Shown piece after piece: positions 18,971 to 64,000 of a stretch of DNA of 64,000 bases. Under the pieces are notes generated by a model, which was given only the letters and a program-made list of their open reading frames with translations, had not been told where the DNA came from and did not search any database. A program made the translations under genes and the position numbers. Each line of letters starts with the position of its first letter. Position 1 is the first letter of the stretch. Source of the stretch: a virus; IMG/VR virus record IMGVR_UViG_3300025889_017816, positions 32,001 to 96,000 of that record. One strand, written 5' to 3'.

Positions 18971-18988
18971 TTATATTCTCCTAATATA

Positions 18989-46349: not shown

Positions 46350-47822
46350 CTATAAAACCAAAATATCGTAAACATTACTAAATTCTGTGGCATCCTCTAT
46401 GGTATTAACCATTGGTTTTCCACGAATATTTAAACTGGTATTTAAAATCATTGGACAACCAGTTTCCTGTTCCCATAATTTCAAGAATTTATTAAACCCT
46501 GGAGAATCATATTCTGAAACAGTTTGGACTCTAGAGCTTCCATCATGATGTATGATGGCTGGGAATTCATCTGGTTTTTTACATTGCATTGTGTATTGCA
46601 TATATGGACTTTCAGAGGTACACATATGAAAATAATTTGATGCTTCTTTTTTAAGGATGGCGGGAGCAAAAGGTCTGAATTTTTGTCTACGTTTAATTTC
46701 GTTTACTTTATCTTTTATTTCAGGACCTCTAGGATCAGCCAGTAAACTTCTGTGACCTAAAGCTCTTGGTCCAAACTCTGCTCTACCATTAGCAATACCA
46801 ACAATTTTATGTTTTTTTAAAGCATCTACTAATTGTTCGGCTGGATACTTACCTTTAATATCATGTCCTAAAAATGCATTATTAAAAAGCATAGATTGTT
46901 TTCTTTGAGCAGCAACCGCACCCAAACTGTTACCTGCATCACCTGGGTTAGGCATGATCCACACATTTTTGAAATAAGTATGTGCAATAGAATTAGCTAC
47001 ACAATTTAATGCACATCCACCCGCAAGAACTAAATTATCCGATGGTACTAATTCTTTGGCTTTGTGCAACAAATCATGAAAATATAATTCATAAACAAAT
47101 TGTGTGGCTGCTGCAATATCATACTTATCTTGTTCAGAAGATAGTTCGCGCCTCCACCATTTACAACCACGATGAAGGTTTTCCTTTAACTTAAGATCAT
47201 GTTTTGTATCAAAGAAGTCTTCCAATATTATTGGAGCATACTTGGATGCGTCTCCATATGCAGCCATACCCATCAAAATATATTCTTCTTCGTTTGGTTT
47301 TAATCCAACACGTTGGGTCATTGCAGAATACCACAATCCTAAACTATGGGGATATTTAACACTAAATTTCTTGTGTAATTTTTTATTTTTTCCTTCCCAT
47401 ATTGTTGTGGTATCAAATTCACCTATGGCATCAATCACTAAAATGGCAGCATCAGGAAACAAAGAAGTATAATAACCACCTGCTGCATGACTTTCGTGGT
47501 GATTACCGAACGTTAAATATTTTGGGTCAATATTATATTTCAGTAAATAATCTCTAAAATTATTTTCTTTCCCTAACCACCCTTGACCTGACATGAATTG
47601 TCGGAATGTTTTTGTAAATGGATTTTCATACCATACTACTTCATCTGGTTTGCCAAAATACAAAGCATCTGAAATTAAATCATGGTGTAAATGAGCATCA
47701 TTCTTTTTTCTTGAATAACGTTCACTTTGTGCGGCAAAAAGTATGGTGTTGTGTTTATCCACAACCGTGATTGCTGCATCATGGCTATTTGCTGATATTC
47801 CCCAACTAATCATATTATTCAT
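46350..47822 (-). CDS. Carbamoyltransferase (NodU/CmcH/TobZ family)
   Basis: HDAA, ERYSR.K.D, HH.SHAA, GGCALN, EFGPRALG.RS, FRPFAP, LNTSLN. Confidence 0.93.
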   Translation of the reverse strand: MNNMISWGISANSHDAAITVVDKHNTILFAAQSERYSRKKNDAHLHHDLISDALYFGKPDEVVWYENPFTKTFRQFMSGQGWLGKENNFRDYLLKYNIDPKYLTFGNHHESHAAGGYYTSLFPDAAILVIDAIGEFDTTTIWEGKNKKLHKKFSVKYPHSLGLWYSAMTQRVGLKPNEEEYILMGMAAYGDASKYAPIILEDFFDTKHDLKLKENLHRGCKWWRRELSSEQDKYDIAAATQFVYELYFHDLLHKAKELVPSDNLVLAGGCALNCVANSIAHTYFKNVWIMPNPGDAGNSLGAVAAQRKQSMLFNNAFLGHDIKGKYPAEQLVDALKKHKIVGIANGRAEFGPRALGHRSLLADPRGPEIKDKVNEIKRRQKFRPFAPAILKKEASNYFHMCTSESPYMQYTMQCKKPDEFPAIIHHDGSSRVQTVSEYDSPGFNKFLKLWEQETGCPMILNTSLNIRGKPMVNTIEDATEFSNVYDILVL

Positions 47823-47823
47823 A

Positions 47824-48687
47824 TTATAACATTTTTTCTATTTTAGGTAAGATATGCTGCTCTAAAAAATTTTTATGTGCTTCGGGGCCTGGATGAACAG
47901 TATCTAATAATTTATAATTGTTTTTTTCTGTGAATTCCAATAAAGGTTCCATTACCCAATTATCAAAATTGATACAATCATAAAGAGGTTTTAAAAAATT
48001 ATATTTTTTATAACAAATATCTTTCTTGATTTTTTTAAAGTGAAAATCATAATCAGGATAATAGAAAAAATCTATAGCCATCATATTCAACATTTTGATG
48101 TTATTTTTTTCACAAAAATATTGTAGTAATAAAATATTATTAAATGTTTCTAACAATTCACTTCCGGAAGAGTGGTAGGTATCGTACCAAGGTTTAACAA
48201 ATTTATCAATTTCTGGGTACCAACCGAATTCATATGTACCACCAGGACTTCCTACAGCCCAAAATTCATTAATATTTGTTGTTTCTTCTTTTGAAAAGGA
48301 CTTTAAGGCGACATGATGATAGGTTCGGTTTGGAAAGGGAAAAATATCTAAAAATATAGGATTTAAAACTGGTAATGGTTCTCTTTTTAATAAGATTGGA
48401 TCATAAACATATAAATCTGAACCATACATTTCTTCCCTGTCTATTAAAAATAATTTTCTAGGAGGATAGGTCCAAAGAACAGCTAGAAAAATTTCATTGG
48501 AGTTATATCCTTTTTCAAATGCTGTTTGAATACCATGTATTGAACTTCTGGTAATCCATTCATTTCCATATGAAGGCATAGCAAGATTGTGTATAGGAAC
48601 CATCAAATGCTCAGCCAATCTATTATTCCAATCAGGGTGCTCGGATGAAAAGCTATCACCACTTGTTATTAGTATTTTAATTTCCAT
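47824..48687 (-). CDS. SGNH/GDSL-like protein (putative acyltransferase/esterase)
   Basis: N-terminal GDSFS, NLA....GN, C-terminal D..HP...AH. Confidence 0.6.
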   Translation of the reverse strand: MEIKILITSGDSFSSEHPDWNNRLAEHLMVPIHNLAMPSYGNEWITRSSIHGIQTAFEKGYNSNEIFLAVLWTYPPRKLFLIDREEMYGSDLYVYDPILLKREPLPVLNPIFLDIFPFPNRTYHHVALKSFSKEETTNINEFWAVGSPGGTYEFGWYPEIDKFVKPWYDTYHSSGSELLETFNNILLLQYFCEKNNIKMLNMMAIDFFYYPDYDFHFKKIKKDICYKKYNFLKPLYDCINFDNWVMEPLLEFTEKNNYKLLDTVHPGPEAHKNFLEQHILPKIEKML

Positions 48688-49472
48688 TATAACTGTTCTT
48701 TAATTTTTAAATAATGGTTAAACAAATATTCTGCAACCAATGAATGTCCAAAATCATTATAATGGCTGAGATCTAGTTCTCCGGTAATACTGTCATAACC
48801 TAGCATAATATTTTGCCAAGATTCTTCAGAATGTATGTGCTCATCTTCCATGTTCTTGTCTGTGTACATTAAAGTCGAACATTTATTACCTATTATCTGC
48901 TCGGCCATTTTTTCCCAAATATTGATTGCTCTATGCCAATATATTAGCAGTTTTATATTGTTCAACTGGCATATTGATTCTATTAAGGTATGATAAACTT
49001 GCCATTTATGTAGGAAGAAAAGTTCGTTTTCTGCGGTTACGGATTCTAATGCGCTTATATATTTTGACATCATTACTTGTTGAAAATCATTAGGGTTGAC
49101 ATTTTTATATGCTGGTAACCCAATCTTGAAATTGTAATACACATAATCTCCTAAATTGGATTCGCGTATTAATGGTAAATCCCCAGGAACGGCGGGGCCA
49201 TGATCTTTTCGTCGTTGTTCTACATCATTTAAAAGAGTCGGAACCTCTTGGCGAGTAGGTTCTGGCCATTGTATAATGACAAGATCACCGGAGACTAGTT
49301 TTCCGTTTGTAATAGCATCAACAACTTCTTTAATAACACGATCATTAGATCCGCAACCCTGTGCTAAATGCAAATAGTTATACCCTAATTTTTCCGCAAG
49401 GACTACACCGTAAGGTCGTAGGACCTTACAATAATCTGAAAAACTACAACCACCTACTGCTAAAGTTGGCAT
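48687..49472 (-). CDS. SGNH-like protein
   Basis: GGCSFS, LA..CGSN.R, IQW....R, D.SH.N..GH. Confidence 0.6.
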   Translation of the reverse strand: MPTLAVGGCSFSDYCKVLRPYGVVLAEKLGYNYLHLAQGCGSNDRVIKEVVDAITNGKLVSGDLVIIQWPEPTRQEVPTLLNDVEQRRKDHGPAVPGDLPLIRESNLGDYVYYNFKIGLPAYKNVNPNDFQQVMMSKYISALESVTAENELFFLHKWQVYHTLIESICQLNNIKLLIYWHRAINIWEKMAEQIIGNKCSTLMYTDKNMEDEHIHSEESWQNIMLGYDSITGELDLSHYNDFGHSLVAEYLFNHYLKIKEQL

Positions 49473-50737
49473 TATTTCCCCTCATAAAAAATTCTATACT
49501 TCTTTTTAAAAATTTGATTTACTGTATTTTTTAAATTTATAAAACTATCCTTCAAATGATCATTATTATAAAAATGTTTCATGTTATGTTCTAAAATAGG
49601 TATATTTTTTAATATAATTTGATTTTTTTGTCTTCTTGATAAAGAAATCCATTTTTCCAATGATTGGTGAGCGCAAAAGAATCTTTCCTTATCATTTTCA
49701 ATATCATCATAACTTTGATCTATACCATAAAAATCCGTTTCATATCCTAAAGTTTGTAAAAATTTTAAAACTCCTTTTTGTCCTAATAATATAAACGGAT
49801 GTCCAGCAACTATAGGTTTAAAAACTTTTTCAGTTATAAACAATCCAGGGTCAAAAAAATTTGTTTCAGTTACGAAAGTTAATAAACTACTTTTATATAT
49901 ATCGTGATTAAATCTGGCTGTTTCATCCAAATATTCAATTTTTTGCGACCAATCACCGTCCACAAATATCGGCAAATTCTCCATCAAAATATCGGTAAAA
50001 TATTTATGATTAATATCAAAATAATTTTCTACCAGCTCTTTCGGGGTCATTGTTTTATTAATATCACATAAACCACTAACCACATTATTTTCAACTAAGT
50101 TTTTATCTATTAAATAAAACAAATGGAAAAACCGTTGTAATCTTCCGGTTCGGTTTAAACTATTAAAAGATTTTGCTTCCAAATCCCTTATTGCTTTTAA
50201 TACCAGCGGATTTTTAGGTATCTTGTTTTCAAAATAAAAAAATCCTGCGAGACCATAACAATGAGCAATTCTTGGGGTTACCTTCTTTTTTATACACCAA
50301 TTTTCATATTCATGATTAAATAATTTATCACCATTGAAAATTAAAACACTAAATGGAGGCAATTCATGCATTTTCATAAAATCATGAATTTTCTGAAACC
50401 CATTAGCTTTTTCATAATTTAAAGATTTTCCTTCTTCCGTATTATCTATCACTAATATTATTTGTTCCTGTTTTAAGGCCTTGATTGTTCTTTCTGGTAT
50501 ATGATTGAGTATATTTTCAGTATGAGGTGTCGCTCCCAGCCAAGTATCTGCATGTTCTCTAACTTTAATAAAATAAATTCCTTTTTCAGGATAAGGTACT
50601 AATCTGCTACGAGACTCCTTAACAACAAAACCTGCCCGCCGTGCTTCTCCGATACTATGTAAAGAATAATCAAAAACTTCTTTTTCCAAATGACTTAAAT
50701 TTCCTAAGTTTTTGTCATCATAATATGCTACAATCAT
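49472..50737 (-). CDS. GT10-like glycosyltransferase-family protein (ET...TEK motif)
   Basis: F.SLNR..R..R, VTET, ITEKVFKPI...HPFILLG, L..LGY.T, D.SYD.I. Confidence 0.55.
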   Translation of the reverse strand: MIVAYYDDKNLGNLSHLEKEVFDYSLHSIGEARRAGFVVKESRSRLVPYPEKGIYFIKVREHADTWLGATPHTENILNHIPERTIKALKQEQIILVIDNTEEGKSLNYEKANGFQKIHDFMKMHELPPFSVLIFNGDKLFNHEYENWCIKKKVTPRIAHCYGLAGFFYFENKIPKNPLVLKAIRDLEAKSFNSLNRTGRLQRFFHLFYLIDKNLVENNVVSGLCDINKTMTPKELVENYFDINHKYFTDILMENLPIFVDGDWSQKIEYLDETARFNHDIYKSSLLTFVTETNFFDPGLFITEKVFKPIVAGHPFILLGQKGVLKFLQTLGYETDFYGIDQSYDDIENDKERFFCAHQSLEKWISLSRRQKNQIILKNIPILEHNMKHFYNNDHLKDSFINLKNTVNQIFKKKYRIFYEGK

Positions 50738-51786
50738 TGGTAATCACCATAAGTATCATTTCGTATAGTGTCCAATGTAACACAATGTGGACCGCCACTC
50801 AAGGTTCTACAGTGTCTCAATCTAATAGGTAACACATCAAAACCGCTAGATTCTAATTGTTTTATGAGCGGTGTTTGTCTTTCTTCTACAGCAACTAAAG
50901 TTTCAGATAAACTTAAAACATTCATGCCTATCCACGGACTTGCTGCTGCCCAGTGTTCTTCATAAGGGGTTTCTATAGGGTCAACACTCCAAATTTTTTC
51001 CCAATTTTTAAAATATGAAGGTAAATTATTTTCGTTTATTCTTTTAGGATTTAATAAAACTTTACCTGGAGCTAAAGGCAAAATAGTAGTATCAACATGA
51101 ATAAAAGCATATATGTTTTCTAAAAGATGAACCTTATATTTTTCACCTAGAAATCTTTGTAGCCATTTTGCTCCTAGTATATTACCTGAATTTGATACTA
51201 AATAAAAAATGTCTTTTCCACACTTAATTACATTTGCAGCATCAAAAGCAATTTCATAATTTGTTAAGGTAGGTTTACTTAAATCTGTTCGGTCATATAA
51301 CTTATTATCTAATTGCGGTTTTGGGGCAGATATCCAATTACTACCCGCATCAAAATATTTCTGAAATAAACTTCTATAAGCAAACGTTTCGAAGTATCTT
51401 GATCTAAGTGGCATAGGTGTTTCAATAATAGTATCACCTATAATTAATACACTATCTCTTGGACAATAAAGATAATAGCCATCAGAAGTCCAATTTGGTG
51501 TTGAAAAAGTATCTGCACAATTTTTAATTTCAGGTCTATAAACAATAATACCTAGATTTTCCAATTGTGTTTGAAAAACATTCAAATCTTCTATGGTCTC
51601 TTCTATGATTTTAGAATCATAATAACCGCTGGGTAAATTATCGGTTTTTTCATAGTTTGCATAATCCACGCAATGCATATCATGTTTTTTAATTGTAGGG
51701 ATATGAGCAAATTCTGCTCTACCTAAAATTATTTCTTTTAAATCGCCCCATTCTGTGTGACAATTAATTTTGTTTAGTGTTTCCAT
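50734..51786 (-). CDS. Amidinotransferase (AGAT / StrB1 family)
   Basis: EW..LKEII.G, YCPRD, RSRYFE, FDAAN, H.DTT, GG.HCVTLD (Asp/His/Cys triad); start ATG 51786. Confidence 0.92.
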   Translation of the reverse strand: METLNKINCHTEWGDLKEIILGRAEFAHIPTIKKHDMHCVDYANYEKTDNLPSGYYDSKIIEETIEDLNVFQTQLENLGIIVYRPEIKNCADTFSTPNWTSDGYYLYCPRDSVLIIGDTIIETPMPLRSRYFETFAYRSLFQKYFDAGSNWISAPKPQLDNKLYDRTDLSKPTLTNYEIAFDAANVIKCGKDIFYLVSNSGNILGAKWLQRFLGEKYKVHLLENIYAFIHVDTTILPLAPGKVLLNPKRINENNLPSYFKNWEKIWSVDPIETPYEEHWAAASPWIGMNVLSLSETLVAVEERQTPLIKQLESSGFDVLPIRLRHCRTLSGGPHCVTLDTIRNDTYGDYQ

Positions 51787-51787
51787 T

Positions 51788-52975
51788 TTAAAATTTCCAC
51801 GGCGTATGTCTGAAATCTGTGATTTCAAAAAATCTATTATAATTGTGCTCTACTATATCTTTTATATTTAATTGCCATTCATGCCATTGCTCTTCAGACA
51901 GATTACATAATCTTTCTATTTCGTCTACAATAGCAGCTAATCTTTTTTTAGGGTCAACAATCGTGTCATAATTCTCATTAATAAAGGGATGGAAGGTTTT
52001 ATATCCTCTATCTCTTAATGCAGATAACATAAAAGCAGAACCAACCAAAATAAATGGATGTTTAACTGATATAGGTTTATAGGTTTTTTCTGTAAAAAAT
52101 TTATGTGATTTATATTCACCATAAGTCCCCATAAAACCGGATTCGTGTGGATAAAAAATTGTTTCAGTTACAACGGAAAAATAACTATTTTCAAAATACT
52201 CCAAATCTTTTGGTGTCATATCAACAGGATTATTTCTGAATTCTGAAACTCCACCCTCTAACCGTAGAGGTAACATATTTTCATTTTCTTTTATTGTATT
52301 GAATACTTTTTCCTCGTAAAAGGGATGTTGGAGTGAATCACCATAGTTATCTAACCACCTTTTAACCCAATTAATATTTGGGGCGTAGCCTGCCCCCGCC
52401 ATCGAATAAAAAGATTGATTTAATAAATTTTTATTTATAACCTTAGATAACAATTCCATTCTATGTAATCTTTCTACCTTATTAAAACATAGAAATTTTT
52501 TTTCTCTTTTTCCAATAAGATAAGAATCAGTTTTAATTTTTGTGCCTTGATAATCTCTAGCAATTTTTTCAAAAACATAATAGGATATTATATTAATTCT
52601 CTCTCTGTAATTTAAACTATTGCAAAATTGATCATAACTTTTAGGACCGTCTAAAGTTCCAGTTGTTAAAAAAATATTTGATGCATCAATGTCTGTATTT
52701 TCTATAACATTATGAATTTTTTTTATGAGAGATATATGTACGGCTTCCATTGAATTAAAAAATATTATTTTTTTATTTTCCTTTAAAACGGCTAGAATAA
52801 TTTCTTTCAATTCTTCATCGGTAAATCTATTAATTTTGTCAGCATAAGCGATAATAATGAAAAAATCATTTTGAAGTTCGCTCAATTCCTTATAAATCAA
52901 AACTAGCAGAAGGAAATAGGTATCTGATTCCTCCTGTAAAAAAGTATATTTTTGATTTATTTCCTGTAGGTTCAT
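51788..52975 (-). CDS. GT10-like glycosyltransferase-family protein
   Basis: KFLCFN...R.HR, YFSVVTET, FTEKTYKPI..KHPFI, LR.RGYKTF...I.E.YD. Confidence 0.55.
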   Translation of the reverse strand: MNLQEINQKYTFLQEESDTYFLLLVLIYKELSELQNDFFIIIAYADKINRFTDEELKEIILAVLKENKKIIFFNSMEAVHISLIKKIHNVIENTDIDASNIFLTTGTLDGPKSYDQFCNSLNYRERINIISYYVFEKIARDYQGTKIKTDSYLIGKREKKFLCFNKVERLHRMELLSKVINKNLLNQSFYSMAGAGYAPNINWVKRWLDNYGDSLQHPFYEEKVFNTIKENENMLPLRLEGGVSEFRNNPVDMTPKDLEYFENSYFSVVTETIFYPHESGFMGTYGEYKSHKFFTEKTYKPISVKHPFILVGSAFMLSALRDRGYKTFHPFINENYDTIVDPKKRLAAIVDEIERLCNLSEEQWHEWQLNIKDIVEHNYNRFFEITDFRHTPWKF

Positions 52976-54201
52976 CTTGTATTGCCATATTGGATAACGA
53001 TAGATTCAGAAATATCTTCTGTTTTTAAATATCTCCAAATATCTATAATAATACTTCCTGGAAGTATATTACAATAAAAATGTTGTTTATCACTACCAAT
53101 TAAATGGCTATGACTATAGGTTGTTGGAGCATGATGAGCAAGAAGAATAACACCATGAGCTTCATTTATCACATCATTAGTAAGAGGGTCAATATATATT
53201 ACCTCATGTCCTTGCTGTTCCACATAATGACCAATTAATAAACTGTAACTGCCTTCTGTGTATGCAACACCTGGCTTATATGCCTTACCATGAATATAAA
53301 TTTTCATATTATTTTTATTGGCTAGGTCAACCATCTTTTCTGCCACACGTTTGGCTTGTAGTTCTCTACTATCCATGATGGCGCCAAATAAATCATAACC
53401 TAAATTTAATTTTTGTGATAACCAACGTAAAGCAATGTTATCACGAGGATGGCAAGCACCTGCATCTCCCATACCCGCTTTCATATAGGCCGGCCCCATG
53501 ATCCGTCGGTCGCTTTCTGCCAAAGCTTTTGTCACCACATCCACATTGATGTTTCCAGATGCTTCTGCTACATCCTGTATCATGTTGACTAATCCAATTT
53601 TAGCAGAGATGAAAGTATTATAAAAAATCTTGATGCATTCTGCTTCATCCCAAGTACCTATGACATATCTTGGGTCATTTTGCATAATAGTTTTATAAAA
53701 ATTTGTTAAAATTTTTGCATCACCTGTAGTGGTTCCATCTTCAGTTCCTATAATAACCATTTCAGGATTAATCATGTCCCAGTTTACAGATCCCATTGCA
53801 ATTAGATATGGGTTGTAAATGAATCTATAATTAGATGTGTGTTTGATAAATTCTCTGCGAGTGGTTCCTGGAAGAACAGTACTAATAAGAACTATTAGTT
53901 GATCTTTAGTGCAATGATTATTCAATTCCTTTAATATATCAATAACTATTGAATAATCAAAATCTTTCGGCTCTAAATGTGCTGTCGGTATTTCACCACC
54001 ATAAGAAGAATCATGAGGTGTTGGGACAGCAATAAAAATTAATTCTCTGTTTTGTACCGCTTCTTTTATAGAAGACAAAACAGAGAATTCTGCTATACCA
54101 TGATCTTCAATATCATATCCTACTACATCATAGCCAGCATTTTTCATTTCGTTTGCACACGGTGCTCCTAATTTACCGCAACCAATCATTGCAACCTTCA
54201 T
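52972..54201 (-). CDS. UDP-glucose/GDP-mannose dehydrogenase family
   Basis: GCGKLG Rossmann motif, FIAVPTP, STV.PGT, YNP, E.IK...N, G.AGACHPRD catalytic Cys. Confidence 0.93.
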   Translation of the reverse strand: MKVAMIGCGKLGAPCANEMKNAGYDVVGYDIEDHGIAEFSVLSSIKEAVQNRELIFIAVPTPHDSSYGGEIPTAHLEPKDFDYSIVIDILKELNNHCTKDQLIVLISTVLPGTTRREFIKHTSNYRFIYNPYLIAMGSVNWDMINPEMVIIGTEDGTTTGDAKILTNFYKTIMQNDPRYVIGTWDEAECIKIFYNTFISAKIGLVNMIQDVAEASGNINVDVVTKALAESDRRIMGPAYMKAGMGDAGACHPRDNIALRWLSQKLNLGYDLFGAIMDSRELQAKRVAEKMVDLANKNNMKIYIHGKAYKPGVAYTEGSYSLLIGHYVEQQGHEVIYIDPLTNDVINEAHGVILLAHHAPTTYSHSHLIGSDKQHFYCNILPGSIIIDIWRYLKTEDISESIVIQYGNTR

Positions 54202-54213
54202 TGATTTAATCTC

Positions 54214-56265: not shown

Positions 56266-58166
56266 GATTTTCCAAAATTTCTTCTTCTGTAAAAAAATAT
56301 TTGCTCACAAAATCTATCTAAAGACACGGTTTTATCTTCAGGAAAATCAAATTCATAGGTAGTTGGAACATCTAATTCTGATATATCTTGCATATATCCT
56401 AAGAAATCATAATTAAAAGTTTTTGTTAAAGGATAATTAGTAATTTTTTTATGATCAATTATATAATATTTTTGAAATTCTAATAATTCATCAAGCAAAT
56501 TATCATCCAATGAATATTTTGATTTAACAAAGTTTTTTATTATATCAAAGAAATGTTCATACTTATCTTCAAAATGCATTTTAATAATTGTGCTATGGAT
56601 TAAATTCCAACCATGTATTTCAACTTTTGAAATTGGTTCATGAGCTATTTCTCCGTTGACTGTCCAAATATTGTAATGATGTCGAACAGAATTCATTTCT
56701 TTTTTCAACCAATCATCCTGATGAATATATTCAAAAAGGTTTTCATAAAATTCTGAATAATCTACATTTTTTGCTTTATATAGATATCTACTAATAAAAC
56801 TTGTTAAGCCATTGATATGAAAGGTATTTAAAAACCAAGAAAAAACTTGAGCATCTAACATTTTTTCCCTAGGCATATCCTTTGTTGCTGTAACAACTTC
56901 AATAGATTCTCTTACTTCTCTCTCATTATATGTGCCAACAATATAGTCATAAACCTCAGCACTTTCAATATTGTGTTCTGCTCGTTGTGTTAAATTCATT
57001 TCAGCATTTTCTAATAACTGTGCTTGGTAAACAGTAATACCTGTGTGATTATTTGCTCTAAAAAGTTTATAAAAATTCTCTTTCCATGATTCTAGAGTTT
57101 CTTCTGGCAACCCAAGGATTAATTCTGTATACAAAGGCACTCCTTCTTTTTCACACATTTCAAAAACTTCTTCAATTTTATTCATGCCAAGGTTTTTTCT
57201 TCTTACTGCTGAAAGAACATCTTCATGAAGACTTTGAACACTCAAATTTAAACCAATTTTTGCGCCGCCACCGTCAATAAGTTTTTTTGCAATTTGAATA
57301 ACGGATTTTTTTTGATTTTTAGCCCATGCCAATGTGTAACTTCTTGGATTATTATAGGTTTGTTGAACTTCTATAAGTTTATCAGCAATTCTTGCATCTC
57401 TTTCTTCAAAGATACCGAAATTTGCATCAGTAAAACTAACGAAATCAAAACCATGTTGGCCGGTCCATTCTAATTCATCATAAACTCTTTGTTCATCAAA
57501 AAGTTTTACTTTTGCATAAGTTAAACTACCCCAGTCGCAAAATGTACATTGATATGGACACCCACGATTAGTTTCTATAGTCATGTTCCATCTAACATCA
57601 TCATTTTGCGCAATTAAATCATCAAATAATCCAGACAAATATGGGCTAGGTATAGTATCTAGTTCGCTAATTCTATCAGCGATTCCTGTGGTTATTGCCT
57701 TACCATTTTCGTTTATTACAAGGCCTCTTATTTTATAAAAATCTTCAGGGGAAGATGCTTCAAGAACCTTTTTAAATGTTATCTCACCTTCTCTGATAAC
57801 AGCTAAATCTATAAAGGAAAATCTTTCAAAAATATCTTTTTTTTCAATTGGTGGTTCAGGACCACCAAATATTATTAACATATTTGGGTTAACTTTTTTT
57901 AATTCTTTGGCTAATTTGTAGTTATAATTTCTATTCCAAATATAAGTACTGAAACCAACTATATCATGATTTTTTAATCTCTCCACTACCTCATCAATTT
58001 CCTCTCTTCTCCAAATAAATTCACCTAATTCATATTTTTCACGGATATTATCAAATTGATTAACATATGACCAAATAATACCTGCACTATATGGTAGGTA
58101 ATAAGCATTGAACTCTTTAGGTCCTTGGTTGAAATTTGGATTCACAAAACTTATAATTTTTTTCAT
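56247..58166 (-). CDS. B12-binding radical SAM enzyme
   Basis: GFS.YIWN, GGP, EGE, PSPYL.G, ETNRGCPYQCTFCDW (CxxxCxxC), DANFG, ELILGLP.ET. Confidence 0.92.
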   Translation of the reverse strand: MKKIISFVNPNFNQGPKEFNAYYLPYSAGIIWSYVNQFDNIREKYELGEFIWRREEIDEVVERLKNHDIVGFSTYIWNRNYNYKLAKELKKVNPNMLIIFGGPEPPIEKKDIFERFSFIDLAVIREGEITFKKVLEASSPEDFYKIRGLVINENGKAITTGIADRISELDTIPSPYLSGLFDDLIAQNDDVRWNMTIETNRGCPYQCTFCDWGSLTYAKVKLFDEQRVYDELEWTGQHGFDFVSFTDANFGIFEERDARIADKLIEVQQTYNNPRSYTLAWAKNQKKSVIQIAKKLIDGGGAKIGLNLSVQSLHEDVLSAVRRKNLGMNKIEEVFEMCEKEGVPLYTELILGLPEETLESWKENFYKLFRANNHTGITVYQAQLLENAEMNLTQRAEHNIESAEVYDYIVGTYNEREVRESIEVVTATKDMPREKMLDAQVFSWFLNTFHINGLTSFISRYLYKAKNVDYSEFYENLFEYIHQDDWLKKEMNSVRHHYNIWTVNGEIAHEPISKVEIHGWNLIHSTIIKMHFEDKYEHFFDIIKNFVKSKYSLDDNLLDELLEFQKYYIIDHKKITNYPLTKTFNYDFLGYMQDISELDVPTTYEFDFPEDKTVSLDRFCEQIFFYRRRNFGKSWITKL

Positions 58167-58169
58167 ATT

Positions 58170-59267
58170 TTAATCCTCAATAAATTTATAAAAAGCTTCT
58201 TTCCTTTTTTCATCCACACTATCAATCATATTTTTCATATTTAAATAATTTTTATGTGCTCGTTCTGAAAAATTATTTATTAATACAGAATAATCTTCAA
58301 CATTTTTATCTAAAAGGTAATTATATACTCTTTCAATTTCATTCCCAATCAATTTTATTCTTACATAAGGATCATGCTCTTTATCATAAGAATGATCAAT
58401 AAAATCATCAAAAATATCAAACCCCAAACTTCTAAGATATTCAGCATATCCTTCGGGTGCTACAAAAATAGGAACTTGGTGACAAAAAAATGCCTTGCTG
58501 GTTTTTTCTGTGAAGAAATGTCTATTCCAAGATTCACATATAGGTAAAAGTGTACCTTCAGGAGAAATTACAGGTGAATAATCATACCCAGATTCCATTA
58601 CCACATTTATTAGAGCAGACACCCAAATCGAAAGATGTTTATGTGAATCATCATAATGTTCTAGGATATTTATTTTCCCAAAAGGAGTTAATGGGAATAT
58701 TTTTCTCACATCTTCAGGTAATAAAGAAAGGTAATTTTCTAACATTCCTTCTTGTTCTAATGCTGCACCGCAGGTTATTATTGTTTTATCAGATAAATGC
58801 AGGTTCCTTTTAATTAATTCATAAGTCATCAAAACCCTAAAAGGTCTAGCAATTCTTGCTAATGAGATCAAGATTTTATCTTTTTTAACTACTGTTTCAG
58901 GATAAAAACCGGAAGTGCCAACAACACCAACATTTACCATAGAAAGATGATGCCATTTTCTAGATAAGGGATTAATAAGAGCTCCACAATCTACAAATAA
59001 CATATCTTTTTCTTCTATACCTAAATTTTGTAATATTCTAGATATTTCAAACCAATATGAAGAAAAAAATGCTTCAGTACAAATATGAATAATAATTTTA
59101 TCCATATCTTTAATAGTTTCTTTGTTTTCTTCAATTAATTTTAATACCCGGTCATATGCACTACCTTCTTGAATTATAAAAATTTTTTTATTTATATCTG
59201 AAATTGGATATTCCCAATCCCTGCTGAAAAAACCAATAGAAACGTCACAATGATGATTATGTATCAT
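58170..59267 (-). CDS. GT10-like glycosyltransferase-family protein
   Basis: L.R..RP.R, INVVMES, FTEKTSK.F...Q.PI, LR.LGFD.FDD.IDHSYD. Confidence 0.5.
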   Translation of the reverse strand: MIHNHHCDVSIGFFSRDWEYPISDINKKIFIIQEGSAYDRVLKLIEENKETIKDMDKIIIHICTEAFFSSYWFEISRILQNLGIEEKDMLFVDCGALINPLSRKWHHLSMVNVGVVGTSGFYPETVVKKDKILISLARIARPFRVLMTYELIKRNLHLSDKTIITCGAALEQEGMLENYLSLLPEDVRKIFPLTPFGKINILEHYDDSHKHLSIWVSALINVVMESGYDYSPVISPEGTLLPICESWNRHFFTEKTSKAFFCHQVPIFVAPEGYAEYLRSLGFDIFDDFIDHSYDKEHDPYVRIKLIGNEIERVYNYLLDKNVEDYSVLINNFSERAHKNYLNMKNMIDSVDEKRKEAFYKFIED

Positions 59268-60066
59268 AATTATTATTTTTTATAAAAGTATACAGGCAAT
59301 TTGCAATAACTTTATAACCTTCTATGGTAGGATGAATACAATTTGCCAAATAGGTTAATGGCCATGGTAATTCTGTATAAGTACCAAAATGTTCATCATG
59401 GTTACAAAAACCATCTAAATCAGATAAAAGATTTATAAAATTTTTATATTGGTCATGTTTATGGTAGTAATTATCCCATTTAATTAAATTTGTGTATTTT
59501 TCTCCAATGTGATTTTTCAAATATCCAGGCAAAAAATATGGATCATATGCATTTGCAAATATGAATTTGAAATTATATCTTTCTGCAAAAGTTTGAGCTT
59601 CCAGTACCGCAGCTAAAAATTCCATACACATCATTGCAGGGCAAAAAATTTCGGTTCTATATGCATCCCACCAAGGCTTTGGTGGGTCGTGAGGTTGCGG
59701 CCAAGCCGTCCAAAACTTATAGTGTTGATCTGGGCGATCATTAAATGTGTCCCATCTCTCTAATCCTGGACACATTAAAATAATTATTCCGCTATCATTT
59801 TCCCAATCCACCTCGTCGGTTAAATAAAGTTGTTTTACAGCGGCCGTGTTGCCTATCCCTCTAACTCCTAAATTCACAGGAGTGTAATCGGTTAGATGAT
59901 CTCTACACAAAACATTAATCCAACTATTTTCGTGTTCATATCCTCTCAGATGTTCATCAGGAACCCCGCGCAAGTTTACACGACCATTGTATTGTTTCCA
60001 TATTTCTTCCGGATATCCACCTTCACCTTGAGCCCAACTACATCCCAACCCAACTATTTTTTTCAT
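59257..60066 (-). CDS. SGNH-like protein
   Basis: GCSWAQG, SW...L, NLG..G.GN, C-terminal HPT..GY..IA. Confidence 0.6.
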   Translation of the reverse strand: MKKIVGLGCSWAQGEGGYPEEIWKQYNGRVNLRGVPDEHLRGYEHENSWINVLCRDHLTDYTPVNLGVRGIGNTAAVKQLYLTDEVDWENDSGIIILMCPGLERWDTFNDRPDQHYKFWTAWPQPHDPPKPWWDAYRTEIFCPAMMCMEFLAAVLEAQTFAERYNFKFIFANAYDPYFLPGYLKNHIGEKYTNLIKWDNYYHKHDQYKNFINLLSDLDGFCNHDEHFGTYTELPWPLTYLANCIHPTIEGYKVIANCLYTFIKNNNYDT

Positions 60067-61376
60067 AGGAATTTACTCCAAAATGTTTTACTTAAATTTT
60101 TATCACGATAAACTTCTACCAATCTCTGGTAGTTATAATCTACAATCTCTAAGGTTTCTTCAAAAAATTTTTTCTTTGTTTCTAAATCCCATAGATTTAT
60201 TTCTTTACATATTTCACCTACTCTAATATATCGGTCATAATCATTTTGAATATCATCATAATCTTCAGGGAACCAATTTGAAAATGTTTTATAACCATGG
60301 TTTCTAAAATATCTCAAAACTCCTGGTGTGCTTAAAATCATAAAAGGTTTTTTATAATAAATTGGTTTATATGATTTTTCTGAAATTTGTTGGACAGCTC
60401 CGTTACCTTGTGTTTCAGTAACCAAACAAACCAAAGATGCTTCATACCAGGAGCGCAATTTCCTCATTGTATCTTGTACCATATCACCATAACTAGTATC
60501 AATGTCTACACGCAATGGTAACCTATTTTGTATGTTATTTAAATCTTCTTCAGTAAGTCCTATTCTTTGAGCAAATGTTCTATTAACCACATCCTTCCAT
60601 ACTTGTCCTGTACTATCCGGATGTTCTGCAGGCATACTAAAAAAACTATCTTTGAGTAAATCATTTTTGTAAAAATACATAAGAAGATTAATTCTGTGTT
60701 CTCTGTATCTTCTATTCAAACAAATAAATGTGGTTTTTATATTTTTAAAATCTTTATTTCCAATATAGTTGGATTGTGGCCCCTGAAAATTTCTAGAAAG
60801 ATGCCATTCATTGCTGTCCCAAAAAGTTATATTCATTCTTTGATCTATTGGGATGTTTTCATTATTACACCATTCCGTATATAATTCATTCCCGTTTGGG
60901 GCGCCGGACTGATAAAAAACTTTTGGTAAAGGTATATGATGTTCAGAAAAATATTTGTGCATTGTTTTATACAAATATGGATAAATTTCTGCCTCAACTG
61001 AATATTCTAACAACAAATAACCATTACCGGACCTTATTCCGTGTTTTATATGGCCAGGTGTATTACTAAGTTCAAACAACCCAGGAGAATGATCATAAAT
61101 GAAATAACCTGGAAAAGGTTTTTCATGATGTAGTTCAAAGGGATAAACAAAAGTATCTTCCGGTTTAATTTCTGATGATGGAATTAATTCAAAAACATCT
61201 TTCATAGTAGAAAAAAAATTTGAGTTTATTCCACTAGATCTCCATTTTTTTGATAATCTATTTGAGTGTTGTACCTCTTCGAGAACCGAAGATAATTGGT
61301 ATATGTTCGGTGTTTCTAGATTTGGTATTGGTCCGGTCGGACCAAACCAATCGTATACTATTTTAATTTTCTTCAT
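60063..61376 (-). CDS. GT10-like glycosyltransferase-family protein
   Basis: FICLNRR...HR, LVTET, ISEKSYKPI..KKPFMI, GYKTF.....E.YD.I. Confidence 0.55.
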   Translation of the reverse strand: MKKIKIVYDWFGPTGPIPNLETPNIYQLSSVLEEVQHSNRLSKKWRSSGINSNFFSTMKDVFELIPSSEIKPEDTFVYPFELHHEKPFPGYFIYDHSPGLFELSNTPGHIKHGIRSGNGYLLLEYSVEAEIYPYLYKTMHKYFSEHHIPLPKVFYQSGAPNGNELYTEWCNNENIPIDQRMNITFWDSNEWHLSRNFQGPQSNYIGNKDFKNIKTTFICLNRRYREHRINLLMYFYKNDLLKDSFFSMPAEHPDSTGQVWKDVVNRTFAQRIGLTEEDLNNIQNRLPLRVDIDTSYGDMVQDTMRKLRSWYEASLVCLVTETQGNGAVQQISEKSYKPIYYKKPFMILSTPGVLRYFRNHGYKTFSNWFPEDYDDIQNDYDRYIRVGEICKEINLWDLETKKKFFEETLEIVDYNYQRLVEVYRDKNLSKTFWSKFL

Positions 61377-62262
61377 TAGTAATTACCGTTATAATCCTAT
61401 TTGCTGCAGTTTGATGTCCTCTCCAACTTGGGTGTATTCCATCTACTCCTGCATGGATATGATACCAATCACAATGACCTTGTTGAAAATTTAAAATAAA
61501 AGGCTCAACAATTAAATGTGTTCTAAAAATTTCAAAATCATATTTCGGCCACATATCATCTAAAATAAAATTATAAACCTTAATATTAAGTGCTTGTAAA
61601 AATAAATTTACTTGATTGTAATATTGTACAAAGGAATTACTCCAAGTTTCTTGTACAACTGCACTTCTTAGAAAATTTTCCTGATATACATTCACTGCTT
61701 CGTCCCAAAGGTTTGTGGGGGTATTTGTTGGTAATAAATGTAATGCAGTACCTTCGTTATTGATACAATCAATTACCTTGGTTTGTCTTGACGGTTCTGG
61801 CCATACTATAAGGATTCTTTCTGGTTTTGGTCTATTTTGCATAAACCATCCGAAAATATTTAGACTTACATATTCTGGAGATCCACCACCTTTAGATATG
61901 TTCACAACATTTCTATTAAAATGTTCTTGATAATAATGATCCCAACGTTCCTTTAATCGCACACCAATGCCTTCTGGCACAGAACACCCTATTGCTAAAT
62001 CATAAGGACCTTTATTGATAATATCAAATTCATGAGTTCTATAACCATAGCTATTGAAAAAATAGAAATCATCTTCCAGATTTCTATATGGCCATTCTTC
62101 CTCTGAAACATTTTTAGGTATAATAACACTATCTACAAAATTATAATATAGATTTTCGTCCCACGTTCCTAAAAATTTTCTAGGTCCCAGGTGATTGTAA
62201 CCTTCCACATATTTTAATATGTCTCTATATAAATGATTTGGTTTAAAAGTCAAATTACGCAT
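61363..62262 (-). CDS. SGNH-like protein
   Basis: FNSYGYR..EF, GCS..EG.G, NIS..G.S, WP...R, DG.HP...H. Confidence 0.6.
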   Translation of the reverse strand: MRNLTFKPNHLYRDILKYVEGYNHLGPRKFLGTWDENLYYNFVDSVIIPKNVSEEEWPYRNLEDDFYFFNSYGYRTHEFDIINKGPYDLAIGCSVPEGIGVRLKERWDHYYQEHFNRNVVNISKGGGSPEYVSLNIFGWFMQNRPKPERILIVWPEPSRQTKVIDCINNEGTALHLLPTNTPTNLWDEAVNVYQENFLRSAVVQETWSNSFVQYYNQVNLFLQALNIKVYNFILDDMWPKYDFEIFRTHLIVEPFILNFQQGHCDWYHIHAGVDGIHPSWRGHQTAANRIITVITNEEN

Positions 62263-63227
62263 TATTTTCTCTTAGGTATAATGATATCAGTTCCACAAAC
62301 GCAATGATATTTATCACAAATTATACTTTTTGGTTTTACCTGTTCAACATCAGTTAAAATGTGACCAACCACACCAGAAACACCACAACTAGCCATGGTT
62401 ATTAATCCTGCGGGGTTAATAAAAACTGAATCTCCGATATCACATTCCCAACCTGTAAAAAAATTCTGACGGGCAATGATAATTTCATTACTGTTTATAA
62501 ATTTGTCTGTACCGTCTGACCATTTACCATAGGAAACAGCAACACTATCTTTAAATGGTTTGTTGGGGGCAAACTTAACTTCCAGATCTTGGTGATTTTC
62601 TATCCATTCATTTTTAGCAGAATCTTTATATTCCCATGGCTTTGCAAAAGCAGACATTTCATCAAACAAAGGTGTCCATTCAATATAATAACCAGGCAAT
62701 TCTCTCTTTAACATTTCACCATATTCTACAACTTCCCAAAATTTTTCATCATGTAATAAAAGTTTATTACAAAAGTAATTTATTTTATCGCATAAAAATA
62801 AACTATTTTTAAAATATCTTTCTTTGTTTACCCCTTCAATATGAAAACTAGCTACAATGTCATCAAAGAGCTGGTAATGAGATTTCCACCAAGATGTAGC
62901 TCTACTTAAATTAGTATTAATAGCTATTGTATTATTTGGTGTATTTTCTTTGAAAAACTCTACTACAGGAATTAAATTTTTCCAAATCGTTGGTTCTCCA
63001 CCACTCAAATATAACTTGAAAGCGTTATAACCATTTTCCTTGTAGATGTTAATTATTTTTTCTAGTTGACGAAGATATATATCCGTGTTATCATCATTTT
63101 TATGATTACCATTCCAATTACCTGGATTACAATAACTACAACTATAGTTACAATTATCGCTAACCTGCCAAGTAATGGCTAGATATTTTTCTTTAGGGTA
63201 TATTTCTTCTATTCTTGATTGGACCAT
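62262..63227 (-). CDS. Radical SAM protein with C-terminal Cys-rich (SPASM/twitch-like) domain
   Basis: CNYSCSYC, SGGEPT, NTNLS, SFH.E, N.F.GW.C, C....C.CG.D. Confidence 0.9.
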   Translation of the reverse strand: MVQSRIEEIYPKEKYLAITWQVSDNCNYSCSYCNPGNWNGNHKNDDNTDIYLRQLEKIINIYKENGYNAFKLYLSGGEPTIWKNLIPVVEFFKENTPNNTIAINTNLSRATSWWKSHYQLFDDIVASFHIEGVNKERYFKNSLFLCDKINYFCNKLLLHDEKFWEVVEYGEMLKRELPGYYIEWTPLFDEMSAFAKPWEYKDSAKNEWIENHQDLEVKFAPNKPFKDSVAVSYGKWSDGTDKFINSNEIIIARQNFFTGWECDIGDSVFINPAGLITMASCGVSGVVGHILTDVEQVKPKSIICDKYHCVCGTDIIIPKRK

Positions 63228-64000
63228 AAGTATAATTCTTTAAATTGAGGAATAGCTTCAAAAATATTTTCATTTCTTAATTCATCATAAGTTGCATTTA
63301 GTTTAAAAAATTCTTGGACTCCACCTTTATTGGATTTTACATGATCCAATGCTCCTATAATAGGTAATAATTTATCTATATAAGGATGAGATTCAGGAAA
63401 TTTAGTCCTCATATCATGATGGTGTTGTCTCCACATTTGCTGTACGTTCTTTGCTATATGTAGAGGTAAAATATCTATAGATTGATACCAAGGATAAGTT
63501 AGAATATTCAATCTCATACTATTTTCTGAAAAATCTATTATTTCATTTTTAATTAACCATTCATGTAATTTTGGGAAATCAAAAATGTTGTATAAAGATA
63601 TAGTAGGTGTTATACCAAATTTAACATGGGGGACTTCTTTTTTTAATTCGTTAATGTTTTTAACAATTTGCTCCCAATTTGCACCATGTCGAAGAAATTG
63701 TATGACATCTCCCATTGCATCTAAACTGGCCCATATTTGAACGTTTTTAAATTTTTTCCAATAATCTATAGCATTTTTATCTTTATATCTTAAGGTCAAA
63801 AAATTTGTCGTATATGTTAATTCCACATCTGTGTGATGATTTTCCAACCAATAATCTAAAATATCATAATGCTCTTTGGTTATCAAAGATTCTCCGCCAG
63901 CAAAATATACCTCTTCCACATCAAGAAGATAAGGCTCCAATTTATTTAAAAGATTATTTTTTTCATTATTAGAAACTACAATTTTTTTCATGTTAAAAAA
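63209..64000 (-). CDS. Radical SAM protein, C-terminal part (N-terminus beyond window)
   Basis: YFAGGE.L....H, Y.TN, ASLD.......R....W; frame is open to the window edge, CxxxCxxC not visible. Confidence 0.75.
   Translation of the reverse strand, partial: FFNMKKIVVSNNEKNNLLNKLEPYLLDVEEVYFAGGESLITKEHYDILDYWLENHHTDVELTYTTNFLTLRYKDKNAIDYWKKFKNVQIWASLDAMGDVIQFLRHGANWEQIVKNINELKKEVPHVKFGITPTISLYNIFDFPKLHEWLIKNEIIDFSENSMRLNILTYPWYQSIDILPLHIAKNVQQMWRQHHHDMRTKFPESHPYIDKLLPIIGALDHVKSNKGGVQEFFKLNATYDELRNENIFEAIPQFKELYLWSNQE

Follow-up and report, generated by a model that had tools for sequence, protein, structure and literature searches.

A sugar-tailoring-like gene block with a GT-B-fold protein family and six radical SAM enzymes in a marine T4-like phage

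Enzyme families encoded in the block

The window analysed here is a stretch of 64,000 nucleotides, positions 32001-96000 of a single viral contig (IMG/VR record IMGVR_UViG_3300025889_017816; 119,474 bp, estimated 67% complete, without end repeats). A preliminary description made from its letters alone had pointed to a tailoring operon of 15 abutting or overlapping same-strand genes at 46350-64000. The listing of open reading frames (ORFs) agrees with it: this part holds 14 complete ORFs and one cut at the window end, all on the minus strand, with junctions of -41 to +12 nt. The cluster also continues past the window, as had been anticipated, with four further genes up to window-equivalent position 70093 (for genes beyond the window end, window-equivalent coordinates are positions in locus L001 plus 62000). 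The full block, g01 to g19, spans 23.7 kb, is 99.5% coding and contains one 95-nt gap. Its AT-richness relative to the remainder, also mentioned in that description, is true though modest, the GC fraction being 0.304 at 46350-64000 as compared with 0.356 in window 1-46349, where the structural module lies, and 0.368 in the contig minus the block.

Five paralogues, which we call the TEK family, make up the transferase-like set of the block: g04 (49472..50737, minus strand, 421 amino acids), g06 (51788..52975, minus, 395 amino acids), g08 (54214..56265, minus, 683 amino acids), g10 (58170..59267, minus, 365 amino acids) and g12 (60063..61376, minus, 437 amino acids). By blastp, g04 matches g06 (E 2e-16), g12, g08 and g10; g10 matches g06 (E 3e-8), g08 and g04; and g12 matches g06 (E 7e-23), g04 and g08. 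In g08, a tandem double protein with two GT-B-like units, two separate stretches (approximately residues 110-300 and 438-650) match each of the other paralogues, and the five proteins thus amount to six GT-B units. The similarity resides chiefly in the C-terminal half, a pattern that would fit a common donor type and differing acceptors. Invariant residues in the family alignment include E77, R172, E271, E296, K297 and D337. The proteins are mostly acidic (pI 5.4-7.7), not basic.

The AlphaFold2 model of g06, obtained from 35 aligned relatives, has a pLDDT of 90.2 and a pTM of 0.90. The Foldseek check that the preliminary description had proposed was carried out on this model and gave only GT-B-fold matches: the four PDB matches at E<=1e-3 are all GT-B trehalose-6-phosphate synthases and the remainder of the list consists of GT-B enzymes. 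Likewise, VIA-align against 48,161 chains gave GT-B-fold proteins in 50/50 among the matches listed. With a confident model and matches restricted to GT-B proteins, the TEK family is predicted to have the two Rossmann-like domains and the cleft of the GT-B superfamily. Of the earlier naming of these proteins as five GT10-like proteins the number stands, and the GT10 label is not established by the sequence comparisons. The family alignment matched an annotated phage GT10 in hhalign with a probability of 26% and an E value of 7e-4, the aligned part was the FSxxxE..FTEK motif only, and approximately 14 additional residues separate the two halves of this motif in the TEK family. It is from this motif that the GT10 idea stems, GT10 enzymes having a GT-B fold with a donor-binding motif of the form ...FEN...YxTEK. 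In the structure search with g06, GT10 enzymes were level with many other GT-B families. No match to an annotated GT11 was obtained by hhalign.

None of the five TEK proteins matched Pfam (E<=0.01), NCBIfam or PHROG, the TEK profile gave nothing usable among PDB sequences, and none of the 507 metagenome homologues of g06 bears a Pfam name. The TEK family has many members: among 1.84 billion representatives, its profile matched 13,205 proteins at E<=1e-3 and 10,468 at E<=1e-10, tandem and fused forms included. A tblastn search with g06 of 50,697 GenBank phage records found no TEK homologue, and megablast of the block found no match in GenBank phages. One TEK-fold match in BFVD, A0A4P6VPA8 (E 4.8e-16), carries the metagenomic label 'Mimivirus LCMiAC02'; the other strong matches are all from uncultured tailed phages.

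The second large group consists of radical S-adenosylmethionine (SAM) enzymes. Six of them, two B12-dependent, are encoded in the full block, and CxxxCxxC is present in all six; the earlier count of three, one of them B12-binding, is right by Pfam within the window and too low for the whole block. The protein g09 (56247..58166, minus, 639 amino acids) resembles cobalamin-dependent radical SAM C-methyltransferases. Its B12-binding (45 bits) and Radical_SAM (46.1 bits) domains both score above the Pfam cut-offs, and its solved relatives are TokK (7kdx, E 3.6e-81), CysS (9n1b, E 2.6e-52) and, weakly, AprD4, which places it with the methyltransferases of the TokK/CysS/KedN5 type, even though its score of 248.6 bits did not reach the cut-off of 700 for the KedN5 family of NCBIfam. 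Both domains are above cut-off in g19 (67874-70093) as well. The shorter enzyme g14 (62262..63227, minus, 321 amino acids) has CxxxCxxC at residues 26-33 and matches Radical_SAM (34.5 bits) and Fer4_12 (23.6 bits); its partial matches to N_Twi_rSAM, viperin and MoaA are all below cut-off. At 44.8 bits it is not a member of the NCBIfam family NF033640 (N_Twi_rSAM), the curated cut-off of which is 170 bits.

Three adjacent genes far exceed that cut-off: g15 (63209..64495, of which 63209..64000 lies in the window, minus, 428 amino acids; 377.9 bits), g16 (64470-65726; 377.5 bits) and g17 (65723-67108; 323.1 bits). In all three the NF033640 match runs end to end, with a SPASM/twitch iron-sulphur (Fe-S) domain ahead of the radical SAM core. 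Frameshifted genes of the rSAM-SPASM type were considered as the cause of this order and ruled out by the full-length match to the curated model. A sequence search of the PDB with g16 gave nothing usable, and our literature search found no publication on N-terminal-twitch radical SAM enzymes or on NF033640. The adjoining g18 (67098-67778) is methyltransferase-like; together with its relatives it weakly resembles class I methyltransferases (3dtn, E 0.027).

Three further enzymes of the block are assigned to sugar-tailoring families, in agreement with the preliminary description. The last gene, g01 (46350..47822, minus, 490 amino acids), encodes an O-carbamoyltransferase of the NodU/CmcH/TobZ type, in which the Kae1-like N-terminal domain (Carbam_trans_N, 142.5 bits, cut-off 24) and the YrdC-like C-terminal domain (Carbam_trans_C, 183.1 bits, cut-off 27) are both well above the Pfam cut-offs. 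Its nearest solved chains are NovN (9s2t, E 4.9e-48), GdmN and TobZ, all O-carbamoyltransferases of natural-product hydroxyls; against the NodU equivalog model it scored 139 bits, short of the cut-off of 1000. The product of g05 (50734..51828, minus, 364 amino acids) is an L-arginine:X amidinotransferase of the StrB1/AGAT family. In phmmer searches of the PDB it matched StrB1, the arginine:inosamine-phosphate amidinotransferase, nearly over its full length (1bwd, E 2.9e-100, residues 21-363), followed by SxtG (1.4e-68), HsvA (6e-59) and AGAT (7.5e-55). It keeps the aligned CPRD, HVD and GGxHC segments of this pentein-fold family, around the Asp, His and Cys of the catalytic triad. Its Pfam match is weak (ADI, 17.7 bits), it matches phrog_25854 at E 1.7e-39, and homologues occur in cyanophage S-SCSM2R (39%) and in Campylobacter phages CP220/CPt10 (32% and 25% identity). 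The third enzyme, g07 (52972..54201, minus, 409 amino acids), is like NDP-sugar 6-dehydrogenases: the UDPG_MGDP_dh_N domain (77.3 bits) and the central domain (60.7 bits) are above cut-off, the C-terminal domain scores 21.1 against a cut-off of 30, and the TIGR03026 score of 173 bits is slightly below the cut-off of 189.8. Inspection by eye located a Cys, presumably the catalytic one, within its GxxxCxPRD segment. Some relatives of g07 are fused to a TEK domain.

Four proteins had been described as SGNH-like, and this call holds with differing firmness for g02 (47824..48687, minus, 287 amino acids), g03 (48687..49472, minus, 261 amino acids), g11 (59257..60066, minus, 269 amino acids) and g13 (61363..62262, minus, 299 amino acids). 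The model of g11 (pLDDT 92.3) gave 23 Foldseek matches to the PDB at E<=1e-3, and those listed are all SGNH/GDSL esterases or acyltransferases (9otv, ChoE, TesA, acetyl-xylan esterases, PatB). S10 and H245 are invariant in the g11 family, and position 242 is Asn rather than the usual Asp (NxxH). The SGNH fold is extended to g02 and g03 by homology to the g11 family in hhalign, with probabilities of 97.3% (E 2.6e-11) for the g02 family profile and 96.4% (E 1.1e-9, 216 columns) for that of g03. Family alignments were required here: used singly, the sequences of g02, g03 and g13 gave no significant hhalign match to the g11 family. g02 has GDS at residues 10-12 and DxxH close to the C-terminus; it has no match in Pfam, PHROG or NCBIfam, and among the proteins closest to it in structure in the Atlas is a cluster labelled DUF6071/'SGNH hydrolase-type esterase' (TM 0.69/0.79). 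g03 has a GCS motif and DxxH, with G8, C9, S10, H237 and H243 invariant in its family. The weakest call of the four is g13: all 14 PDB matches of its family profile at E<=10 are SGNH/GDSL esterases, the best being 7c2a at E 0.002, hhalign to the g11 family gave only 17%, and the Atlas offered no more than leads; S94, G126, D274 and H277 are invariant. The block I Ser and the block V His are invariant in all four family alignments, and DxxH is found in the g02 and g03 sequences and in the g13 family. Neither a signal peptide nor a membrane segment was seen in any of the four, judged by eye and by hydropathy.

Recurrence of the module and exchange between close relatives

The survey of gene neighbourhoods in viral metagenomes that had been suggested earlier was done with a pattern scan of IMG/VR using the TEK alignment, which gave at least 542 relatives among 598 stretches; the best 80 matches correspond to 78 distinct loci, in which the module recurs. 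Since similarity to TEK proteins decided which loci were taken, and since many of them run off a contig end, the following counts are not natural frequencies. By tblastn, homologues of g07 were found in 51 of the 78 loci, of the N-terminal-twitch enzyme g16 in 45, of g09 in 32, of g19 in 31, of g01 and g14 in 26 each, of g05 in 16 and of g11 in 11. Clustering of the 1167 ORFs of at least 100 amino acids from these loci added a g02-like SGNH family (44 loci), an NAD-epimerase/dehydratase (24), a short aminotransferase of DegT type (14) and two DxD-containing GT-A-like families (24 and 16). The presence of NDP-sugar epimerase/dehydratase and DegT-type aminotransferase genes beside relatives of the block supports the sugar interpretation given in the preliminary description. 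A literature search found no publication on this module.

The carriers that were tested are T4-like phages. Among the carriers, the five largest contigs (200-365 kb) all encode the T4-type major capsid protein Gp23, and three of them have terminal repeats. A search for the NCLDV capsid family gave 0/5, a result uninformative on giant-virus origin because its control was likewise silent. A scan of 185,579 species genomes gave 13 loci, and four of the bins concerned were tested. The Haliscomenobacter bin G007 has 12 N_Twi_rSAM genes in two arrays. The two contigs that carry them (C1 and C3, loci L108 and L109; 183 and 148 kb) are phage contigs binned with the bacterium: Gp23 is encoded on both, and on both the module is complete, with a tandem run of five N-terminal-twitch radical SAM genes. 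Gp23 genes are present in a Flavobacteriales bin, and a Pelagibacterales bin (G009) has one N_Twi_rSAM gene above cut-off and no Gp23 match; taken together, the carrier bins G007, G010 and G009 contain T4-type capsid genes or additional module genes. The one convincingly cellular TEK homologue is a lone copy on a 213-kb Caulobacteraceae contig. Its neighbours are GDP-mannose 4,6-dehydratase, NDP-sugar epimerases/reductases, GT4, GT61, GT2 and a sugar C-methyltransferase, a context relevant to a GDP-fucose donor. The module is essentially confined to viruses.

An independent record, L005, allowed us to compare the block with that of a close relative. The two are 97.5% identical in nucleotides over 6.8 kb from g01 through gp59, including the junction of g01 with the DNA ligase gene, and 86.9% identical across g07-g06. 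Over g02-g05 there is no nucleotide match, and over g08-g13 nearly none, apart from one 257-bp piece (66.5%) within g12. At the amino-acid level the identity to L005 is 97.5% for g01, 94.4% for g07, 92.7% for g14 (partial) and 70.9% for g06, and falls to 42% for g12 and 33% for g13. In place of g02-g05, L005 has SGNH-like, TEK-like, methyltransferase-like and PP-loop (NAD-synthase-like) genes, and in place of g08-g11 two shorter TEK-like genes. In bacterial O-antigen loci, conserved precursor and end genes surround a replaced centre of transferases and esterases. This O-antigen-like swap, with conserved flanks and a replaced transferase/esterase centre, suggests diversifying selection on the structure of the product. 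The position of the amidinotransferase is held in L005 (8843-10254) by the methyltransferase-like gene and the PP-loop gene with its SGGxDS motif, and in cyanophage S-SCSM2R a gene annotated as NAD synthase adjoins UDP-glucose dehydrogenase; the parallel hints at uronic-acid amidation as an alternative decoration.

Host DNA joined by misassembly, which had been raised as a possible explanation of the block, is ruled out: there are phage genes on both flanks, L005 repeats the ligase junction at 97.5%, and Gp23 is encoded in 5/5 large carriers and on both G007 contigs. The block is phage DNA.

On its 3' (downstream) side the block is followed by genes for DNA ligase, PhoH, a PD-(D/E)XK nuclease, a cell-wall hydrolase, gp59 and gp32. 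On its 5' (upstream) side lie IMPDH/GMP-reductase-like, T4 DsbA-like, UvdE, kinase/cytidylyltransferase-like, PurA-like and Fe-S A-type carrier genes. The IMPDH/GMP-reductase-family gene (L001:8090-9148, 216.9 bits) and the PurA-like gene (L001:11434-12477, a short 347 amino acids) look like purine-nucleotide auxiliary genes adjoining the block. A PurZ identity of the latter, which would mean 2-aminoadenine DNA, was ruled out by scores of 185 bits to PurA chains as compared with 60-65 bits to PurZ chains. The Fe-S carrier (106 amino acids, L001:12493-12813, window-equivalent 74493-74813, minus; PF01521, 69.9 bits) is 4.4 kb upstream of the block, and homologues of it occur in 3 of the 78 related loci. 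The remaining window is a T4-type structural module with gp5, gp6, baseplate wedge, tail fibres, neck protein and gp15. Between baseplate and tail-fibre genes it also encodes, at 16673-23494 (minus), two giant proteins of 765 and 1501 amino acids that match phrog_358 and phrog_877, families with no assigned function. Judged by gp6, the closest cultured relatives are Methylophilales phages Melnitz (39%) and Pelagibacter phage HTVC008M (36%).

A promoter-like site of the sigma-70 type, TTGACA-17-TATATT, is located ahead of the block at window-equivalent 72380 (L001 10380). Copies of it, often with an upstream TG, stand in intergenic gaps at L001 10380, 12876, 17489 and 17912 and at window 46346 (minus), and a further copy is found within g16 (L001 3101). 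The late motif TATAAATA is absent from the intergenic gaps of the block and is not enriched in the contig, with 16 occurrences as compared with about 24 expected. A strong terminator-like hairpin (window 44670-44641, minus; 13 pairs, 7 of them G-C, then a T run) lies directly past a small ORF 3' of DNA ligase and could be the end of a long transcription unit that contains the block.

Proposed pathway and alternative products

What could such a block make? The folds, the families, their intact motifs, the retention of the same genes across loci and the exchange of transferases between close relatives are the direct support for an answer, and they make it likely that the block builds and tailors a glycan. 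The preliminary description had proposed a heavily decorated oligosaccharide aimed at the virion, the host surface or DNA; its enzyme families hold, as do the GT-B and SGNH folds and the sugar-gene neighbours, and of the three targets DNA is disfavoured. Our preferred reading, held as a tentative one, is a cytoplasmic pathway from unusual activated sugars to a strain-variable, heavily decorated oligosaccharide. For its acceptor a virion protein of the phage is the leading guess, which we would not put higher than that.

In this pathway g07 would oxidise an NDP-hexose to an NDP-uronic acid. The four radical SAM enzymes without B12 (g14-g17, three of them with the N-terminal twitch Fe-S domain) would then rework sugar carbons, and the two TokK/CysS-like B12 enzymes (g09 and g19) would methylate unactivated carbons, while g18 may supply an extra methyl group. 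The two B12 enzymes would in turn imply a host that supplies cobalamin. An amidino group would be transferred by g05 from arginine to a primary amine, yielding a guanidino group, and a hydroxyl would be O-carbamoylated by g01. The six GT-B units of the five TEK proteins would add residues sequentially, and the four SGNH enzymes would attach or remove O-acyl groups. The nearby PF01521 gene may supply Fe-S clusters to all six radical SAM enzymes. Hydropathy analysis found a transmembrane-like hydrophobic segment in no block protein, and a crude hydropathy scan of the 78 related loci found three or more such segments in 3 of the 1167 ORFs; synthesis of the glycan in the cytoplasm is the best reading of these sequences.

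The choice of a virion protein as the acceptor draws on the GT-A-like genes. Of the DxD family, which 24 loci carry within the module, the present contig has the homologue at window 10949-12049 (minus), between tail-fibre genes, and we count this link of the module to the virion in favour of such an acceptor. An adjoining gene at 12039-12764 (minus) is also GT-A-like and of Anp1 type (Pfam Anp1, 28.9 bits, cut-off 28.8). Virion glycosylation by phage transferases has been reported for mycobacteriophages, in work as cited in PMC12619734.

Several points weigh against the proposed pathway. The steps are read from family membership, and with them every substrate, the order of the steps and the acceptor. 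The contig showed neither a sugar nucleotidyltransferase nor an aminotransferase, and because it has no DegT or epimerase homologue either, the amine that g05 would modify lacks an encoded source there. The promoter-like site and the missing late motif, which are consensus matches only, would suit early expression over virion assembly. The mix of families also resembles aminoglycoside tailoring (StrB1, TobZ, B12 radical SAM methylases). Finally, the co-occurrence counts are biased, because the loci are those that matched TEK best and many of them end at contig edges.

The same glycan chemistry might instead be aimed at the host envelope, with soluble phage transferases extending or redecorating host lipid-linked intermediates at the inner membrane face, so that an altered surface during a long infection blocks other phages or grazers. 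For transferases of such phages this is the explanation favoured by the pelagimyophage authors, who place radical SAM cassettes in a variable island (PMC7029224). Many of the GT-B structural matches of g06 use lipid-linked acceptors (WaaG, PglA, WbnH, PimA), the promoter-like sites upstream of the block are of an early type, and the mosaic variation is like that of O-antigen loci. However, the block has no flippase, polymerase, ligase or polyprenyl-phosphate transferase and no protein with a membrane segment, and the hydropathy counts given above are not those of a Wzx/Wzy- or ABC-type locus. Since no membrane protein accompanies the module, this route would need to rely on host machinery. The module is also essentially virus-confined, and the block lies outside the tail-fibre island to which PMC7029224 assigns most such genes. 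We consider the host envelope an unlikely target.

A soluble, aminoglycoside-like pseudo-oligosaccharide or another small molecule, not attached to any macromolecule, is improbable. Its appeal lies in the characterised relatives, the closest of which are natural-product enzymes (StrB1 of streptomycin; NovN, GdmN and TobZ; TokK and CysS; weakly AprD4; the KedN5 family), and the authors of the S-SCSM2R report speak of its amidinotransferase, radical SAM and aminotransferase genes as 'antibiotic synthesis genes' (PMC12801897). Yet genes for a cyclitol synthase, an exporter or self-resistance were not seen, a set of six GT-B units plus four SGNH proteins is large for such a product, and transferase swaps between near-identical phages are more typical of surface glycans.

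DNA is a more improbable target still. In that case the TEK proteins would glycosylate phage DNA, the other enzymes would modify the sugars on it, and the genome would be protected against host nucleases. T-even relatives differ in their DNA transferases as well. The block has genes of DNA metabolism around it (ligase, gp32, gp59, UvdE) and promoter-like sites of an early type ahead of it. Multi-sugar phage DNA glycans made by GT-B enzymes are documented in bioRxiv 10.1101/2023.12.21.572611. The searches for known base-handle enzymes speak against this target. In G000-G004, C5-DNA methyltransferase and TGT/DpdA were each found in 0/5, with working controls, and since the three complete module-bearing genomes among them, with terminal repeats, are without known base-handle enzymes, DNA as the acceptor is disfavoured and the hypermodification put forward in the preliminary description loses ground. 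The five large genomes G001-G005 each encode one ThyA with the canonical PFNI(A/M)SYALL and PCH motifs, at least 22 kb from the module, and ThyX was found in 0/5; the fragment G000 has neither. Our own contig, within its 67%, has no ThyA or ThyX and has a dCMP deaminase. Tet/JBP was found in 0/5, a result uninformative because the control was silent. The mostly acidic character of the TEK proteins also speaks against DNA.

That the radical SAM array matures a ribosomally synthesised and post-translationally modified peptide (RiPP), with the sugars secondary, is very improbable: the SPASM/twitch and B12 radical SAM maturase matches in its favour (ApyD, rSAM_ocin_1, StsB) are weak and all far below cut-offs, the constant partners in the module are a sugar dehydrogenase and GT-B proteins, the top B12 match is TokK and not a peptide methylase, and neither a small ORF resembling a precursor nor a RiPP recognition element was noticed, although no systematic search for one was made.

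Returning to the oligosaccharide on a virion protein, a bolder form of it can be drawn, which is possible and rather doubtful. Many uncultured T4-like phages might share a virus-specific, radical-SAM-driven glycan code, in which a guanidinylated, carbamoylated, C-methylated and O-acylated oligosaccharide is built in the cytoplasm by the unnamed GT-B family, attached to a virion protein, and reshuffled between near-identical phages like O-antigens, deciding host recognition or escape from defence. The N-terminal-twitch enzymes would in that case carry out a new sugar reaction.

The module in relation to known systems

Sugar clusters with radical SAM enzymes in T4-like phages have been noted since 2010, none with a known product. 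The novelty lies in a module that can be defined, and in its scale: it combines a GT-B family as yet without a name, arrays of N-terminal-twitch radical SAM enzymes, a pair of B12 methylases and an SGNH set related to DUF6071, and it is subject to the swap seen between near-identical phages. The core of the module consists of the GT-B family, the NDP-sugar dehydrogenase and the N-terminal-twitch arrays, to which carbamoyl, amidino, B12-methyl and acyl steps are optional. In the marine T4-like phage it is defined, recurrent and testable. Naming the TEK family would give an annotation to thousands of 'hypothetical' viral proteins, and the enzymes of the block are candidates for new sugar chemistry. 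If the product is on virions or on the host surface, it would bear on host range and on how marine phages compete.

The T4 alpha- and beta-glucosyltransferases and the phage DNA glycan pathways (bioRxiv 10.1101/2023.12.21.572611) have no detectable sequence similarity to the block, and a search of the three complete module-bearing genomes gave none of the enzymes that provide a base handle (hydroxymethylase, C5-methyltransferase with 5mYOX, or DpdA/TGT). The GT10 alpha-1,3-fucosyltransferases differ from the TEK proteins in the points given above, namely the missing Pfam match, the 26% hhalign probability and the longer spacing of the motif halves. O-antigen and capsule loci lie nearer in organisation. 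The block is virus-borne and lacks their Wzx, Wzy, ligase and initiating transferase; like them, it has conserved precursor genes flanking an exchanged centre of transferase and acyl-modifying genes.

The pelagimyophages described in PMC7029224 are likewise marine and T4-like, with a variable island in which glycosyltransferases, UDP-glucose dehydrogenase and radical SAM cassettes differ between close genomes. Their island occupies the tail-fibre region from VrlC to gp14, whereas the block is beyond gp32, gp59, PhoH and ligase, and unlike their host recognition cluster only two GT-A-like genes stand among the tail fibres here. Sugar or 'cell-wall' gene clusters are also found in T4-like cyanophages, namely S-SCSM2R and, as cited in PMC12801897, P-SSM2 and S-SCSM1. 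In S-SCSM2R the neighbours of the g05 homologue are glycosyltransferases, one radical SAM gene and a short gene of DegT-like type; DNA ligase is close by, and a second cluster holds UDP-glucose dehydrogenase, NAD-synthase-like, GT10, GT11, GT1 and GT2 genes. Unlike here, tblastn finds no TEK homologue in it, its cluster holds a single radical SAM gene as compared with six, and many 2-oxoglutarate oxygenases are present instead.

The Campylobacter phages CP220 and CPt10 (Timms et al. 2010, PMC2853527) differ from the present phage in lacking the TEK family, high-scoring N-terminal-twitch arrays, B12 enzymes, the carbamoyltransferase and the SGNH set, and in having GT-A-like transferases and a PAP2 phosphatase. 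As in the phage studied here, they are T4-like myoviruses, and one cluster unites five radical SAM genes, the homologue of g05 and nucleotide-sugar transferase-like genes. Timms et al. regard this cluster as an interchangeable and probably non-essential module that differs between the two close phages.

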